Shown here: positions 5,238-53,912 of the stretch, one piece after another
How the letters are laid out: each line of letters begins with the position of its first letter
How positions within the stretch are numbered: the stretch's first letter is position 1
From: Promethearchaeota archaeon
GTDB taxonomy: Archaea; Asgardarchaeota; Lokiarchaeia; Sigyniarchaeales; SOKP01
Reading direction: 5' to 3'
DNA: 64,000 bases
Assembly: GCA_008080735.1 (NCBI GenBank)
Contig: SHMW01000001.1
Span: forward strand, 53,037-117,036
Position numbers and translations under genes: made by a program
The notes under the pieces: generated by a model
Databases searched by the model: none
Told to the model about the DNA's origin: nothing
The model's input: the letters and a program-made list of their open reading frames with translations, nothing else

Positions 5238-6308
5238 GTGCAGATCCTTGATCAAGATAAGAAAAAAGGCGAAATCACGGTAAGAGTGCAAGATTTAAAT
5301 GATTTATGGACGCTCTACAATATCATTTCAAAAGGAGATACAGTTTCATCATTAACGCAAAGGAGAGTTGTAATGAAAGAAGGGAGCAGTGGAGAGAGAA
5401 AAGTAATGCGGCTCACGTTAAAAGTTGAAGATGTCGCGTTTCATGAATTCAGCAATCGTTTGAGGATAAAAGGCACGATATTGGAAGGACCCGATGATTT
5501 TGTAAGTTTTGGCTCCTATCACACTTTCAATTTAGAAATTAACCAAAAAATTACTATTATCAAAGAGAATTGGATGCGTCAAGACTTAATGAGATTGAAA
5601 GAATCGTCAAAATTATCTACGAATTTTGTTATGCTTATTATAGCAATGGAAACGGGATTAGCAAATGTGGCGCTTATTACTAATTACAGTCATAATAATA
5701 TCGCAACGATTACTAAAACTATTCCCGGAAAGCGATATGAACAATCCTTTCGAAAAAAGTTCTTGCACGATTTTTTTGAGGACGTGCAGCGGGTAATTGA
5801 ATCGAACACGGAAACCAGAGATATTAACCTTATAATTATCTGCGGTCCGGGGACGGTCAAAGATCAGTTTATTCGATGGTTAAAAGAAAACTCAAGTCAA
5901 GAGTTTGATAATATGAGAAGTATCCATGCGAGTTCTGGAACCGAAAGCGCGATTTATGAGACGCTCAAATCACAGGAACTGGCAAAATTAAAAAAAAATA
6001 TCAAAATTCTACAAGAAACCGAAAAAATTGAACAAGTCTTAACACAACTGGGAAAGGATGCAGATTTAATTTCGATTGGCGTAGCAGAGGTGGCAAAGGC
6101 AGCGCAAATGGGAGCAGTGGAACAATTACTTGTTGCCGACATTGTCATTCGAGGAGCATCTAAGGCGAAAAAATTGGAAATAGAAGAAATAATAACCAAT
6201 GTGGAGCAAACTGGGGGACAAGTGGATATTCTTAATACAAAACACCCGGCAGGAGAACAACTTACTGATCTGGGCTCGCTTATTGCGATCTTACGATATA
6301 AGTTCTGA
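5238..6308 (+). CDS. pelA: mRNA surveillance protein pelota
   Basis: DLWTLYNII, RLRIKG, GSYHT, IPGKRY, GPG and HPAGEQL...G..AILRY motifs of the eRF1/pelota family. Confidence 0.95.
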   Translation: MQILDQDKKKGEITVRVQDLNDLWTLYNIISKGDTVSSLTQRRVVMKEGSSGERKVMRLTLKVEDVAFHEFSNRLRIKGTILEGPDDFVSFGSYHTFNLEINQKITIIKENWMRQDLMRLKESSKLSTNFVMLIIAMETGLANVALITNYSHNNIATITKTIPGKRYEQSFRKKFLHDFFEDVQRVIESNTETRDINLIIICGPGTVKDQFIRWLKENSSQEFDNMRSIHASSGTESAIYETLKSQELAKLKKNIKILQETEKIEQVLTQLGKDADLISIGVAEVAKAAQMGAVEQLLVADIVIRGASKAKKLEIEEIITNVEQTGGQVDILNTKHPAGEQLTDLGSLIAILRYKF

Positions 6309-6328
6309 TTTCCTTCAAAGGTTATATA

Positions 6329-7360
6329 ATGGCAGAAAAAATTATTTACCTCAACCAAGATTCTGGAATCCCACTCTTTGGGTTAGATTTTATTGGAATC
6401 ATTGATAGAGGAACAAATATCATCGAATTGAAGCCGCTCACATTATGCAATATAAAATGTAGATATTGTTTTGTAAGTGCGGGAGAATTTCGAACTAATT
6501 TTATCATTGACCCCACCTATTTTTTAGAGGGTGTTCGAACCCTCATTGACCTTAAAGGTGCTTATGATATTGAAATTCATATAGCGCCTTATGGAGAAAT
6601 CTTTCTCTATAAAGATCTCCTTATGCTCCTGGACTTATTGTGGCAACTCGAAGGTATTACAACCATTTCCATTCAAACAAATGGGCTTTTACTTACTCCT
6701 TCCCTCATAAAATCCTTGGAATCGGTAAATGTCACACGTCTAAATATCAGTATTAATACTCTCAATGAGAAATTGGCTCAATATTTGTCGGGTTGTGAGA
6801 ACTATGATATTAACTCTCTTATGAAGAATGTCAAATTATTGTTAGAATCAAATATTGATGTTTTAATTGCCCCTGTGTGGTTTCCTGGTGTGAATGATGA
6901 GGATATCGAGGACATAATTTCATTTGTCGTTGAAATGCGCACCATGGGGTATTCTAATCTCGATATCCAACTCGGAATTCAAAAATATTTAATTTATCGA
7001 ACTGGGAGAAAACTTAAGAAAATCCGACCAAAAACATGGGGCTATTTTTACCAACAACTCGGGAATTTAGAAGAGAGGTATGATATAAAACTCAAATTAG
7101 GACCTCACGATTTTAATATTCACGATCGCCCGCTCTATTCTATTGATATCAATGAAGGTGAAATACTTCCCGTCACTATTAAAGCCCCGGGACGATGGAA
7201 AAATGAATGTATTGGGGTTATAAACGAGTTGTCTGCTGTTAAGGTATTATTAAATAGTCCACTCGAATATTCGGACACGCTTCTCGGAAAAAATATCAAT
7301 GTAAAGATTTTAAAATCAACTCAGTATGATAGTATCATCACCACCTATCTCCCATATTGA
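6329..7360 (+). CDS. Radical SAM protein with C-terminal TRAM-like domain (COG2100-like)
   Basis: GIIDRGTNIIE, CNIKCRYC (CxxxCxxC), QTNG, APVW-x-PG-x-ND. Confidence 0.85.
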   Translation: MAEKIIYLNQDSGIPLFGLDFIGIIDRGTNIIELKPLTLCNIKCRYCFVSAGEFRTNFIIDPTYFLEGVRTLIDLKGAYDIEIHIAPYGEIFLYKDLLMLLDLLWQLEGITTISIQTNGLLLTPSLIKSLESVNVTRLNISINTLNEKLAQYLSGCENYDINSLMKNVKLLLESNIDVLIAPVWFPGVNDEDIEDIISFVVEMRTMGYSNLDIQLGIQKYLIYRTGRKLKKIRPKTWGYFYQQLGNLEERYDIKLKLGPHDFNIHDRPLYSIDINEGEILPVTIKAPGRWKNECIGVINELSAVKVLLNSPLEYSDTLLGKNINVKILKSTQYDSIITTYLPY

Positions 7361-7445: not shown

Positions 7446-8078
7446 GTGGTGATAAGCTTGCCTATTATAACCCATGAAGATGAACTTGACCTTGCACGGC
7501 TTGAAGATGAGCTTGTGGATAAACTTGAATACCATGCGAAAGAGCAGAGTAAGGTGATAAAAGCACAAAAAAAGCTAGCTGAGAGAATTACTGATATGAA
7601 TATCTCTCGAAAAGCTTTGAACAGAACGATGAGAGATGTCTTTAAACAAATGCAAATGTTAGCACGCGAACATAGATCCAACGTAAAGGAAGAAGATGTA
7701 AATTTAATGGAGGAACTCATCCGACAAAACGATAAATATATAGAAGCGAATGATAAATATTTAAATGCCATGAAAGATCTGGCTGTGCGTAAAGATTATC
7801 TCGTCGAAAAGAAAATGGAATTCGCAGAAGCTTTAGAGGAAGTCGCTGAGAAAAGAGAAGTTGTAATAAAGAAAGCACTTGACGTTGAGAAGGCCAAAAA
7901 TAAGATGATCGAAGGAGATAAATTAAATCGTCTTGATCAAGAACTTAACGATATCCAACGAGAATTTGACAGAGCTCGGGATATCTTGCTCAAAAAGATT
8001 GAGCAGTTTTTAGATGTTCGCAAAGAAATAAATGAACTGTGGCTCAAATTAGAACAAAGTACAACTGAATTAAGTTAG
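7446..8078 (+). CDS. All-helical coiled-coil protein, BAR (SNX/Vps5-type)-like
   Basis: About 205 aa of long amphipathic helices. The C-terminal KAKNKMIEGDKLNRLDQELNDIQREFDRA...EQF...INELW resembles SNX-BAR helix 2/3. The true start is probably the TTG after GGTGA. Confidence 0.5.
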   Translation: MVISLPIITHEDELDLARLEDELVDKLEYHAKEQSKVIKAQKKLAERITDMNISRKALNRTMRDVFKQMQMLAREHRSNVKEEDVNLMEELIRQNDKYIEANDKYLNAMKDLAVRKDYLVEKKMEFAEALEEVAEKREVVIKKALDVEKAKNKMIEGDKLNRLDQELNDIQREFDRARDILLKKIEQFLDVRKEINELWLKLEQSTTELS

Positions 8079-8260
8079 GATTTAATAACATTTTTTTTCA
8101 CTTTTTTTCTTAGTATAAAATTGGGATCTGATATTTCTATGTCTTAGAACGCTATAGAAAAATTAGCTCAAACTTAATAAATCTAAAATAATATGTTATA
8201 TAGTGAATTTGATAGAAATTTTATCAGAAATTATAACGAAAAAGAGAAAAAGGAGTAAAA

Positions 8261-8773
8261 ATGGCAGAGGAATTTAGTAGTTTTCTTGCATCAGCGAAAA
8301 AAGAGCCTATAGAGGAAAAGGTTAACCAATTCGGCGAGATTGTAGAGAAGATCATGAGTATTGTACTCCGTATCCCGGATTTAGTCGATCAATCCATCGC
8401 AACCATCAATCAAAAAATTTCAGGCTTAGAATCAAAAGTTAATAACATGAATAGCGAAATTTCGTCCTTAAAAAGTCAAGTGAGTTCAGGTGCTACAGCT
8501 TCTGGAGGGTCTAGTTCTGGCTCAGCACCCGGAGGCCCAACTGGGAAAGCACCCGGAGGCCCACCGCCAGGGCCATCAAAACCATCGGGTGGCGCACCTG
8601 GAGGACCGCCTGGAGGACCACCTGGAGGACCACCACCTGGACCAGGAGGCGGAGCGCCTGGAGGACCACCTGGAGGGCCAGGAGGCGGATCGAAGCCCGC
8701 AAACCCGGTATCTCTTAGAGGCGCGATTATGGGCGAACTAAAAGAACTCTTTGCAAAGAAAAACCGAAAATAG
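8261..8773 (+). CDS. Coiled-coil / Pro-Gly-rich / C-terminal basic amphipathic helix protein (actin-regulator-like architecture)
   Basis: Good RBS (GGAG). N-terminal heptads, GGPPGGPPPGP repeats and a terminal RGAIMGELKELFAKKNRK. Confidence 0.6.
   Translation: MAEEFSSFLASAKKEPIEEKVNQFGEIVEKIMSIVLRIPDLVDQSIATINQKISGLESKVNNMNSEISSLKSQVSSGATASGGSSSGSAPGGPTGKAPGGPPPGPSKPSGGAPGGPPGGPPGGPPPGPGGGAPGGPPGGPGGGSKPANPVSLRGAIMGELKELFAKKNRK
8525..8690 (+). repeat. GC-rich imperfect tandem repeats (cctggaggacca-type 12-mers) encoding Gly-Pro tracts
   Basis: Repeated cctggaggaccg/cca and gcacccggaggccca units within CDS 8261-8773. Confidence 0.8.
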
Positions 8774-8990: not shown

Positions 8991-10736
8991 GTGAGAAGTC
9001 TTAGACCGCTCTTCGAGACCGATAAAAAAGTGAAGGTATCTCATGATTTTAAGCGACAAATCTTAGAGGTACTTTCCTTAGCTCGCGTTATCAATAATTA
9101 TTACTATAAGAAAAAAAAGGTACAGGAGCAGATCAGACCGCAAATTCTACGACAATTTAGGGAAGAGCTGAGTACGATTAAACAAAATCAAGATTGGTTA
9201 TTCGCGATTCCTTCGGTCTTAGAAAAGATCAGCGAAGATTTTATTAGTAAAAACGACTCCTTCCGCTTTCCAGATAGTATCATCCTCTTTGAAGTTTGGA
9301 TGAATTTGGGAATTACAAGTTTGTATCCTCAAGTTGCTTTACACTTTAAATTTCCAGGATTCTTAAAAGGAGAACAAACACGCCATATCTTTCAATTTAT
9401 CTTTTCTACTTCTCGGGGCTTAGCTTTTCCTATACAATTTCCGCCAGAATTCTATTCCTATTCACCCAAGTTCCTTAAATACTTAAATCCTCTCTTTAAA
9501 TGGATCTATAAGATATGCCATGTTCTCAATATTGCAATTTTTAAATTAGAAAAACGGTTTCATTCAAAACGGCATCACCCTGGAGATTTTGAATCCGTCA
9601 TCATCTCAAAGTACAATAATAATTTCTATAGAGCTGTGAACACGCTTTTTCATGGGTATTTTACAGATGCACCGAAAACGCTTGGTCAATATTCATCTTT
9701 TCAGGAAATTTTAGAGGATACTATGTTTTGTTATCGAATCGGTGATCATGCCATTGAAGTGAAGAAAGATGAACCACACTATCAAACTCTCGATGTACCT
9801 TTAATTAATCAAGATTTAATCAAAAAACGTTATGAAGTCGATTTTTATGGTTATATTAAGAAACTTATGGCGGTTAACAGATTATTAACAAAAAAAATCG
9901 AATATTACCGCAAAAAACGTAAGAAACTCATAAAAAATCTGCCCTTGGTGGATCAAATTAAATTCTGGCTCCAGATTTCGAAAAAACTCTCTCTTCCGGG
10001 GCAGCACCTCCCGCCTAATTATGCGGAAATAGAAAAATACCATAAGCACAAACATCTTATCGAAAAATTACGGAAATTGTTATGGTTGACTCCCCTCTTT
10101 ACGCACACAATCCATGATGCATCAAGAGTGAAAGAATCTTTCAAATTTTCTAAAAAAGCGGAGCAATTGGATGGGTACGACTATAACATAGAATCCTCAA
10201 AACCTATCTTTTTTACCTTCATCTCTACCTATGAAAAAGATGAAGAATTTGAGTTTGCGGATACGGAAGTACTCACTTCATTAGAAGATCTCCGTGACAC
10301 AATGGCAAAAATGTGGCTTTATTTTAAAGAGCGCCATTTCAAATATGCTTTAAAAAAATTAAATGATGTGGCGCGGCTTTCTACCGAAAATAAGGAAAAC
10401 AAGGCGAAAATAGAGACGGACATTAAAAAACTAATCCCAATTATTGCGATTTATGAAATTTTTAACAGACCCCTATCCGAATCCGTATATCCCGAGTCCA
10501 TTCCTCAAACTAAGCGTTTTAAAGCATATTTAGCAAAATTTTTAACCTCTCGCTATAATATACTCGGATTAAATCTCATTAAATTCTTTAATAAGTTAGC
10601 CTATAGAAATTGGGCATATCTTATAACACAGAAAGAGATGAATCTCCATCAATTCTTTCGTTTTATCTTTAGTTTGGACATTTGGAAACATATCCCTAGA
10701 AATATAAAAGAATATTTGACACAGAACTCTGTCTAA
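8991..10736 (+). CDS. Hypothetical protein (581 aa, basic, largely helical)
   Basis: Long ORF with RBS-like GAGGG before GTG; no recognisable motif. Confidence 0.6.
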   Translation: MRSLRPLFETDKKVKVSHDFKRQILEVLSLARVINNYYYKKKKVQEQIRPQILRQFREELSTIKQNQDWLFAIPSVLEKISEDFISKNDSFRFPDSIILFEVWMNLGITSLYPQVALHFKFPGFLKGEQTRHIFQFIFSTSRGLAFPIQFPPEFYSYSPKFLKYLNPLFKWIYKICHVLNIAIFKLEKRFHSKRHHPGDFESVIISKYNNNFYRAVNTLFHGYFTDAPKTLGQYSSFQEILEDTMFCYRIGDHAIEVKKDEPHYQTLDVPLINQDLIKKRYEVDFYGYIKKLMAVNRLLTKKIEYYRKKRKKLIKNLPLVDQIKFWLQISKKLSLPGQHLPPNYAEIEKYHKHKHLIEKLRKLLWLTPLFTHTIHDASRVKESFKFSKKAEQLDGYDYNIESSKPIFFTFISTYEKDEEFEFADTEVLTSLEDLRDTMAKMWLYFKERHFKYALKKLNDVARLSTENKENKAKIETDIKKLIPIIAIYEIFNRPLSESVYPESIPQTKRFKAYLAKFLTSRYNILGLNLIKFFNKLAYRNWAYLITQKEMNLHQFFRFIFSLDIWKHIPRNIKEYLTQNSV

Positions 10737-11057: not shown

Positions 11058-11639
11058 TTAGAATTCCAAAAAACCAGGATCTTCGAATACATCTTCGATT
11101 TCGCGCTCTTTCTTTATGTCACTCTCGTCGTGCTCACTGAATAAGGAATCGTCATCTGTCTGAATCCCGTGTTCAAGTTCTTCGGTTTCTAATTTGAGAA
11201 GAGCATCTTTCTCCAAACGCTTGTATTTTTCCGATCTCATTTTCCATTCATTTACCTCGTCCATATCAACATCATCTTCTTCTAATAATTGGGCCGCTTT
11301 AACCTTACTCAGATCTGCTAATATTGAATAGGCAAATGCTAATTCTCCGAACTCTTCCTTTTGCTTAAGCTTATTAACTCGTCTCTCTAATCTTTGTAGC
11401 TCCTGATCCGCGTAGTATATATCGATAAAATCCCCAAAGGCATCCACTGGTTCTGAGATCGAGTTGATTAAAACCTCTTTCTCAAGTCCACAATGTCCGC
11501 ATTTTACTGTTGCGAAGCCGCCACCTTTTTTAATATCCTTTACCTTTACACTTTTTTCACCGCAGCTGGGGCATGTGAAAATCTTTGGTAATTTCTTAAC
11601 TCTTCTATAGCTCGTTTGCTTTCTTTTACGTCGTCCCAT
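11058..11639 (-). CDS. elf1: Transcription elongation factor Elf1 with long helical/acidic C-terminal extension
   Basis: MGRRKRK...LPKIFTCPSC...CGHC...EPVDAFGDFID is the Elf1 zinc ribbon. Confidence 0.9.
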   Translation of the reverse strand: MGRRKRKQTSYRRVKKLPKIFTCPSCGEKSVKVKDIKKGGGFATVKCGHCGLEKEVLINSISEPVDAFGDFIDIYYADQELQRLERRVNKLKQKEEFGELAFAYSILADLSKVKAAQLLEEDDVDMDEVNEWKMRSEKYKRLEKDALLKLETEELEHGIQTDDDSLFSEHDESDIKKEREIEDVFEDPGFLEF

Positions 11640-53537: not shown

Positions 53538-53912
53538 ATGAATCAAGAACAATTTGATACAACAGTAGAGAAATTGAATGAATATGATGGGATTGAAGAA
53601 GTCTTTCTTTTGAGTGCGGAGGGAGAGATTCTCTTCCGTTCCAAAGATTCTGAGTTTGCAAACGAAGAGAGCAAAGCGCTTTTGAAGGCATGGAAAGAAA
53701 AAGAACCTTCTCTTCATTTTATGAACCAGCGATATGCGATTTTAAAGAACGATGAGATCCAATTGGCAGCAAAGAACTTCTCGGGAAAAGGAAACATCGC
53801 GGGGTCAGTTACTAAGGATGGAGAGTATCTACTTATTCATATTCGTGATGATACGGGATTAATTTTGCTTGAATGGTCGATTTTTGTAAATAAAATTGCA
53901 TGGGATCAATAA
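53538..53912 (+). CDS. Asgard profilin-like protein
   Basis: 124 aa. Helix, then VFLLSAEGEILFRS, SLHFMNQRYAILKND..LAAKNFSGKGNIAG, matching the Loki-profilin pattern. Confidence 0.75.
   Translation: MNQEQFDTTVEKLNEYDGIEEVFLLSAEGEILFRSKDSEFANEESKALLKAWKEKEPSLHFMNQRYAILKNDEIQLAAKNFSGKGNIAGSVTKDGEYLLIHIRDDTGLILLEWSIFVNKIAWDQ

Follow-up and report, generated by a model that had tools for sequence, protein, structure and literature searches.

Genes A and B, which lie side by side on the forward strand of the window (the whole stretch of 64,000 nucleotides that we analysed, about 33% GC, from contig C1 of the Asgard genome G000), are real, conserved and previously undescribed Asgard genes. The best-supported identification of gene B is as a free-standing copy of a pan-Asgard GTPase-tail module, a long helix joined by a flexible linker to a short conserved helix at the extreme C-terminus. 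Gene A appears from its predicted structure to be BAR-like at the level of the fold, with borderline scores that leave it short of a demonstrated BAR domain. On our best reading, a trafficking or membrane-scaffold module akin to the tails of small GTPases describes the pair better than a demonstrated actin-assembly machine does. More specifically, gene B would be a tethered docking adaptor made of the GTPase-tail module and gene A its lineage-specific BAR-like neighbour, a proposal that we rate as evenly balanced between right and wrong.

The locus

The two open reading frames singled out by an earlier, sequence-only reading of this DNA are both present, at the positions it gave and on the forward strand. 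The features of the locus, numbered from the first letter of the window, are as follows.

7446..8078, + strand: gene A, an open reading frame of about 207 aa with a three-helix fold like that of the BAR superfamily
8091..8108, + strand: oligo-T run past the stop of gene A, read from the sequence and resembling an archaeal terminator, its probable function
8252..8255, + strand: GGAG ribosome-binding site, read from the sequence, 5 nt ahead of the ATG of gene B
8261..8485, + strand: gene B residues 1-75, the conserved N-terminal head and a single long helix (model and conservation)
8486..8710, + strand: gene B residues 76-150, the disordered Gly/Pro arm (pLDDT below 50, variable, TRF repeat)
8711..8773, + strand: gene B residues 151-170, a putative terminal docking helix, followed by the stop (invariant columns)
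8991..10736, + strand: P0003, a 581-aa gene directly downstream of gene B and perhaps a third component of the cluster (tblastn)

An A/T-rich stretch resembling a promoter lies upstream of the GGAG site. The oligo-T run after gene A and the separate ribosome-binding site of gene B would point to separate transcripts; read in this way, the sequence suggests that gene B is transcribed on its own.

A search of 5.8 billion proteins returned 488 homologues of gene A, which share approximately 65% identity across genera, and more than 200 homologues of gene B. Together with the near-invariant ends described below, these numbers place the conservation of the two genes far beyond chance.

Structure and conservation of gene B

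Gene B encodes 170 aa, contains the Gly-Pro string that had drawn attention to it and ends in the helix that the sequence-only reading had quoted. In the predicted model, residues 2-12 and 17-75 form helices with pLDDT above 90, the second of them 59 residues long; residues 76-150 are disordered (pLDDT below 50), and after them comes a helix at residues 151-169. The layout proposed for this protein, in which a coil is followed by a Gly-Pro tract and a conserved end helix, is thus present in both the sequence and the model. None of the families in Pfam or NCBIfam matched gene B above threshold, and the only signal was sub-threshold coiled-coil noise.

The near-invariant parts of the protein are its first 45 and last 25 residues, while the arm between them varies in length as well as in sequence. 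In the DNA that encodes the Gly/Pro arm, TRF found 7.2 copies of a 12-nt tandem repeat (positions 8595-8680), which explains the variable length. The longest proline run in this gene B is PPP; runs of PPPPP occur in most of the Lokiarchaeial members.

Conservation of the terminal helix had been suggested as a check, and the helix is strongly conserved. Across 78 cluster representatives sharing no more than 50% identity, the consensus is S-(L/I)-R-(G/A)-A-(I/L)-M-x-E-L-K-x-L-F-x-K-R-K, with the E-L-K core invariant in all 78 and the surrounding residues nearly so. The helix is always at the extreme C-terminus, and almost all of 200 members have a short basic tail after it. A few members, including the one in G138, a genome of the size of that of Lokiarchaeum ossiferum (L. 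ossiferum), carry a poly-Asp or otherwise acidic tail behind the helix. The helix has a moderate hydrophobic moment (0.32) and carries a net charge of +3 on average. Invariant polar residues (E and K) in a helix that keeps its place at the very C-terminal end are consistent with a specific docking peptide.

Relationship of gene B to the tails of Asgard GTPases

A profile built from gene B matched 275 representative clusters in a search of 1.84 billion representatives. Five proteins (P0295, P0315, P0371, P0361 and P0393) carry the complete B module behind an Arf/Gtr1-RagA GTPase domain; in the first four of these, the C-terminal 120-140 residues are matched by positions 11-150 of the profile. 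In P0393, a Pfam HHH_5 match covers the N-terminal helix-hairpin-helix region of the GTPase. Two further arrangements were found: P0307 is a Ras-family GTPase followed by the head helix of gene B, and P0360 is gene B followed by LRRs.

The same relationship can be seen within the genome under study. When all open reading frames of G000 were searched with a regular expression and with the profile, the terminal motif, basic tail included, turned up only in gene B and in two Arf/Rag-like GTPases (C9:51142-52332 and C97:12219-13694), and both of these GTPases match the N-terminal and the C-terminal sub-profiles of gene B. One profile spans both the long helix and the C-terminal E-L-K...L-F helix of the GTPase tails. 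The literature consulted on Asgard Arf proteins does not describe these tails.

We also considered whether the Arf GTPase of L. ossiferum that co-precipitated with Lokiactin is a fusion of this kind. The protein concerned (GNAMCCOK_04696; 329 aa, 38.12 kDa, an exact match to the L. ossiferum Arf GTPase) has a roadblock-like end and no terminal motif, which rules it out.

A BAR-like fold for gene A

Gene A encodes 210 aa if translation begins at its GTG; the homologues have 206-207 aa and start approximately 3 residues later. An alignment of 57 sequences contains 45 invariant columns, and the AlphaFold2 model computed from that alignment (pLDDT 91.2) consists of three long helices at residues 12-74, 82-152 and 157-205. 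The protein had been described as all-helical, and the model agrees. It also has the size and the three long, kinked helices that characterize the BAR-domain superfamily (about 200-250 residues).

The top matches to this model in the PDB, as found by Foldseek, are almost exclusively BAR-superfamily domains: the F-BAR domains of FCHO2 and Syp1, arfaptin, SNX1/SNX5, I-BAR domains and Lsp1/Pil1. The E-values of these matches are never below 0.02, and the TM-score is at best 0.59. A structural aligner independent of Foldseek gave Z-scores of 13.0 for arfaptin, 11.8 for the BAR domain of SNX1, 11.5 for the I-BAR domain of MIM, 11.4 for the BAR domain of ACAP4 (193 residues at 3.6 A) and 11.1 for Lsp1; these scores do not rise above the ceiling (Z about 13) below which, according to the aligner, values are common among long helical bundles. 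Three-helix bundles outside the superfamily match the fold as well, and SipB, PE/PPE proteins and designed bundles are among the matches. A language-model search, which is independent of the fold searches and provides leads only, placed an Asgard FAM92/BAR cluster, CIBAR1, Bin3 and arfaptin nearest to gene A beyond its own clusters (0.78-0.83).

A Pfam scan of gene A at E <= 1 found no family of the BAR clan (BAR, Vps5, IMD, arfaptin, FAM92), and when the whole genome was searched with PF09325, PF03114 and PF08397 (Vps5, BAR and IMD, respectively) at the same threshold, the gene A locus was unmatched. Nor was there any NCBIfam match above threshold. The sequence-only reading had compared the second half of the protein to the helices of SNX/Vps5; this likeness survives at the level of the fold, where the SNX1 BAR domain is among the better matches, and is absent at the level of the Vps5 family in Pfam. 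A shape search of the ESM Atlas returned only unrelated helical segments, and a search for longer homologues revealed no fusion of gene A to PX, PH or Vps28 domains, which is weak evidence.

As a crude measure of a basic face, we counted 13 invariant Lys/Arg residues in the 57-sequence alignment. Across the family, the whole-protein pI lies anywhere between 5.0 and 9.3 and the net charge varies widely, so that at this crude level a basic membrane face is not a consistent feature. Gene A is neither of the two BAR proteins named in the L. ossiferum study: genome position rules out both Bar1 and Bar2, and mass also rules out Bar2. Gene A would add a BAR-like fold family that was missed by the curated models we tried (Pfam and NCBIfam).

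Distribution and gene order

The two genes differ considerably in their range. Gene B was matched in 243 of 400 Asgard genomes belonging to many families, whereas the 135 genomes (of the same 400) with a match to gene A all belong to three families, f1 to f3, of one order. Because gene B is far more widespread, gene A is not the conserved target of its terminal helix. The members of gene B in five other Asgard classes keep both the head helix and the terminal helix; their arm is a linker rich in Pro, Ala, Ser and Thr with no polyproline, and their neighbours are unrelated metabolic genes that form no conserved context. In several Asgard families gene B was not found (0 of 31, 0 of 22, 0 of 19 and 0 of 12 genomes).

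Where the two genes occur together, their arrangement depends on the family. Of the f1 genomes listed with coordinates for both genes, nearly all have gene A followed by gene B at a distance of 100-700 bp. The order is reversed in G131 and G132, and in G130 the two genes are convergent. In three closed genomes of a sister family (G135, G138 and G143), genes A and B are separated by 260-390 kb or more. For example, gene A in G138 adjoins the genes for ribosomal protein L37ae and the exosome, while gene B follows an Elf1-like gene. The latter, a 206-aa open reading frame, was examined as a possible paralogue of gene A and proved to encode an Elf1-like zinc-ribbon protein. Conservation of the gene pair had been proposed as a check; the adjacency holds in nearly all of the f1 genomes listed and, with other arrangements, in G130, G131 and G132, and does not extend to the closed genomes of the sister family.

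In f1, a third gene accompanies the pair. P0003 lies directly downstream of gene B in 11 of the 12 f1 loci examined with tblastn, at 44-63% identity, and may belong to the cluster as its third gene. It has no match in Pfam, NCBIfam or the PDB, and its Atlas model is of very low confidence.

Searches bearing on actin

The sequence-only reading likened the layout of gene B to that of actin-assembly factors and its terminal helix to both WH2 and the F-actin-binding segment of VASP. We found no support for an actin-assembly function: no WH2, VASP or WASP family matches gene B, the polyproline is specific to one order, and the fusions are to GTPases. The WH2 model (PF02205) had no match in the whole of gene B at E <= 1, nor in four isolated C-terminal peptides at E <= 10. 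The L-[KR]-[KR]-[TV] element of WH2 is absent from the consensus of the 78 representatives, and the protein ends after L-F-x-K-R-K. A profile of the terminal peptide, searched against all PDB chains, found no WH2 or other actin-binding peptide and no MIM or PIP ligand; apart from a non-significant stretch of twinfilin-2 (E = 0.48), it matched only a designed heptad coiled coil (E = 0.001). Pfam likewise gave no EVH1 (WH1) or VASP_tetra match to gene B. The helix may bear some likeness to the F-actin-binding block of VASP. Two other classes of ligand were considered and rejected, the PIP box of PCNA partners (x-x-x-L-x-x-L-F with a basic tail) and the MIM1-like MIT ligands of ESCRT-III: the hydrophobic spacing fits loosely in both cases, but the invariant E-L-K core does not seem to agree with either consensus.

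Lokiactin is reported to be present in virtually all Asgard genomes and is used for crawling and protrusions, and its only established regulators are profilins and gelsolins (PMC13716822). As a further check, we compared genes A and B with the published co-immunoprecipitation of Lokiactin from L. ossiferum, in which BAR-domain proteins were detected at non-significant levels (PMC13716822). The orthologues were taken from G138 (6,035,313 bp), where gene B occupies 2,628,799-2,629,257 (152 aa) and gene A 3,020,645-3,021,265 (206 aa); their predicted masses are 16.14 kDa for gene B and 23.92 kDa for gene A. No protein of either mass is found among those enriched at log2 >= 1.7 in the preprint supplement, and no entry of 23.92 kDa is found among the table entries examined (PMC13716822); this comparison uses predicted mass rather than locus tag and is weak negative evidence.

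Alternative explanations

An actin-based account would make gene B a minimal regulator of the Ena/VASP, WASP or arcadin-2 kind, with a helix that binds the groove or the filament side of Lokiactin, a proline arm that recruits profilin-actin and a coil that oligomerises, while the BAR-like gene A couples the whole to curved membrane. The architecture fits, from the coil through the proline arm (with PPPPP in most Lokiarchaeial members) to the conserved amphipathic and basic end helix, and eukaryotic MIM-type I-BAR proteins combine a BAR-like domain with a Pro-rich region and a C-terminal WH2. There is also a precedent in arcadin-2, whose C-terminal helix, tethered by a linker, binds the hydrophobic groove of crenactin (PMC5173319); the terminal helix and Lokiactin are both extremely conserved in this order (89-100% identity for actin), and BAR-domain proteins appear, non-significantly, in the Lokiactin precipitate. 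Nevertheless we consider this account unlikely. The helix lacks L-K-K-T/V and runs into L-F-x-K-R-K, and the searches with the WH2 model and of the PDB brought up no actin-binding peptide, the match to twinfilin-2 being non-significant. The polyproline on which recruitment of profilin would depend is missing in other classes, and the profilins of Loki and Odin do not bind the polyproline of VASP (PMC8410842). The partners fused to the module are small GTPases and LRRs, and in this genome no gelsolin or other actin-binding domain occurs with it. Neither predicted mass was recovered in the co-immunoprecipitation, and gene B was not found in several families even though Lokiactin is nearly universal (PMC13716822).

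The terminal helix might instead be an amphipathic membrane-targeting helix that holds both gene B and the GTPases at a membrane to which gene A also binds, comparable to the hypervariable linker and lipid anchor of Ras, Rho and Rab or to the C-terminal helices of MinD and FtsA. This explanation, which we regard as doubtful, accounts for a helix placed at the very end of the protein after a flexible linker, and for its amphipathic character with an invariant aromatic residue, its positive charge and its basic tail. It gains from the helix-hairpin-helix N-terminus of a GTPase such as P0393 (HHH_5), located where canonical Arfs have an amphipathic helix, and from a BAR-like neighbour that would act at membranes too. 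The hydrophobic moment is only moderate, though, and a helix that binds lipid in a generic way would not usually keep a Glu invariant and other positions fixed as small or polar. Acidic tails in a few members should repel anionic lipids, and the poly-Asp tail of the G138 protein speaks against a purely electrostatic anchor. A different objection applies to the pair as such: genes A and B may be functionally unrelated, and their adjacency a matter of synteny inherited within one family. The separation of the two genes in the closed sister-family genomes (with L37ae/exosome and Elf1 neighbours, respectively, in G138), the signals suggestive of separate transcription and the contrast between a gene confined to one order and one spread across the phylum all favour this view, and adjacency within f1 may indeed be partly inherited. 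That the genes stay adjacent through three arrangements, in three families or genera, speaks for a functional link, and P0003 travels with both genes in f1; on balance we think it rather doubtful that the two are unrelated.

As to what the terminal helix docks onto, another protein is the candidate we favour most, at somewhat better than one chance in three; a membrane comes next and actin after it, with a small share left for anything else. These assessments divide up the target of the helix and are separate from our confidence in the explanations above.

Proposed mechanism and significance

We return to the reading of gene B as a tethered docking adaptor with gene A as its BAR-like neighbour. 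The N-terminal helix of gene B would oligomerise or bind a partner, and the arm, which is disordered in the model, could serve as a tether that extends its reach. At the end of this tether, the amphipathic C-terminal helix would engage a single conserved target found across the phylum, either a protein groove or a membrane surface. Gene A may act at the same membrane-proximal site, possibly as a local partner of gene B through the N-terminal helix of the latter, and P0003 is perhaps a lineage-specific companion alongside gene A.

A pan-Asgard family that resembles a tether and is shared with Arf/Rag-like GTPases is a candidate for what connects small-GTPase signalling to membranes and possibly to the cytoskeleton. 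Even if the target of the 20-residue helix is not actin, identifying it would define a new interaction motif specific to Asgard archaea. The most far-reaching version of the actin account, in which gene B is an Asgard tethered factor for the actin groove or filament, of the arcadin-2 or Ena/VASP kind, and together with gene A and perhaps P0003 links Lokiactin to curved membrane in protrusions, strikes us as improbable. If it were true, the presence of the same helix on Arf/Rag-like GTPases would imply that actin came under the direct control of small GTPases before eukaryotes arose. What is new here is the analysis of the A-B-P0003 linkage, the evidence on the fold of gene A and the comparison with the published co-immunoprecipitation.

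Comparison with known systems

Ena/VASP and WASP/WAVE proteins are made of the same types of parts as gene B, namely a coil that oligomerises, a tract rich in proline and a short helix that is both amphipathic and basic. In VASP the order of these parts is reversed with respect to gene B, which has its coil at the N-terminus and its helix at the C-terminus. Gene B further differs from Ena/VASP, WASP/WAVE and WH2 proteins in having no match to EVH1/WH1, WH2 or the VASP tetramerisation domain, and in that polyproline is not found family-wide.

The layout of arcadin-2 from Pyrobaculum is closer, with a conserved C-terminal helix beyond an unstructured, unconserved linker and with activity that is carried by the helix alone (PMC5173319). 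[quoted passage not shown] The arcadin-2 gene adjoins that of crenactin, whereas gene B is not adjacent to the Lokiactin gene in G000, where the two are on different contigs (C1 and C109, respectively).

For gene A the relevant comparison is with the BAR superfamily (arfaptin, SNX1/Vps5, the I-BAR/IMD domains of MIM and IRSp53, ACAP/APPL, FAM92/CIBAR and Pil1/Lsp1). Gene A shares with these proteins a length of about 200 residues and three long helices, and the superfamily supplies the structures that best match its fold over the full length (Z 10-13, TM up to 0.59) as well as its nearest language-model neighbours. It differs from them in matching no Pfam BAR family by sequence, and the fold scores are within the range common to helical bundles.

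The tails of the Asgard Arf/Gtr1-RagA-like GTPases differ from gene B in being attached to a GTPase domain, whereas gene B stands alone. The whole of the module aligns between the two: each has a long helix, a flexible linker that is Pro-rich or polar and, at the extreme C-terminus, a helix of the form E-L-K...L-F...basic.

Gene neighbourhood of B

The genes that flank A, which encodes a BAR-like three-helix protein, and B, the docking-helix adaptor candidate, are as follows (window coordinates).

5238-6308 (+), Pelota/eRF1-like protein, upstream of A
6329-7360 (+), radical-SAM protein, directly upstream of A
8991-10736 (+), P0003, a 581-aa Lys/Tyr/Phe-rich protein, conserved immediately downstream of B
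11058-11639 (-), Elf1-like zinc-ribbon protein (Pfam E 8e-19)

In two closed relatives, G135 and G138, an Elf1-like orthologue immediately precedes B in the same orientation; it is confirmed by Pfam in G135 and identified through sequence similarity in G138. The Elf1-B neighbourhood is therefore conserved in two families. In a third closed relative, G143, the slot directly upstream of B is occupied by an unassigned 205-aa ORF. The Elf1-like protein of the window carries an extension of approximately 115 residues, helical and acidic, that ends in a conserved G-F-L-E-F.

P0003 directly follows B in 11 of 12 loci examined in f1, the Asgard family of the source genome; family, PDB and Atlas searches gave no lead for it. 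Upstream of A the context is one of housekeeping genes (Pelota/eRF1-like, radical-SAM), and cytoskeletal genes are absent there.

The terminal helix of B and its occurrence on GTPases

Two Arf/Rag-like GTPases of the source genome, G000, have tails that end in a B-type helix.

C9:51142-52332 (-), 396 aa
C97:12219-13694 (-), 491 aa

Both have a helix-hairpin-helix-like region at the N-terminus, and in both the C-terminal tail closes with an E-L-K-D-L-F-basic helix identical in kind to that of B. Directly downstream of the 491-aa protein on C97 is another GTPase (268 aa), which lacks the motif. G138 is a closed genome of 6.04 Mb whose protein masses agree exactly with those of L. ossiferum. Its B orthologue (C1:2628799-2629257; 6001-6459 of the stretch L025) has three PPPP(P) runs, and six Asp residues come right after its terminal helix.

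Taxon labels and the profilin candidate

Near-identical homologues of A and B bear NCBI names ranging over Loki-, Thor-, Heimdall-, Odin-, Hermod- and Hodarchaeota, whereas a GTDB-based genome search confines A to one order, so the submitters' labels on these MAGs look unreliable.

The sequence-only reading had also placed a profilin at 53538.

53538-53912 (+), 124-aa ORF, putative profilin

A match to Pfam Profilin does exist (E 0.009), but its 16.5 bits fall below the cut-off of 25, which leaves the assignment unconfirmed. Such a score would be plausible for a divergent Asgard profilin.
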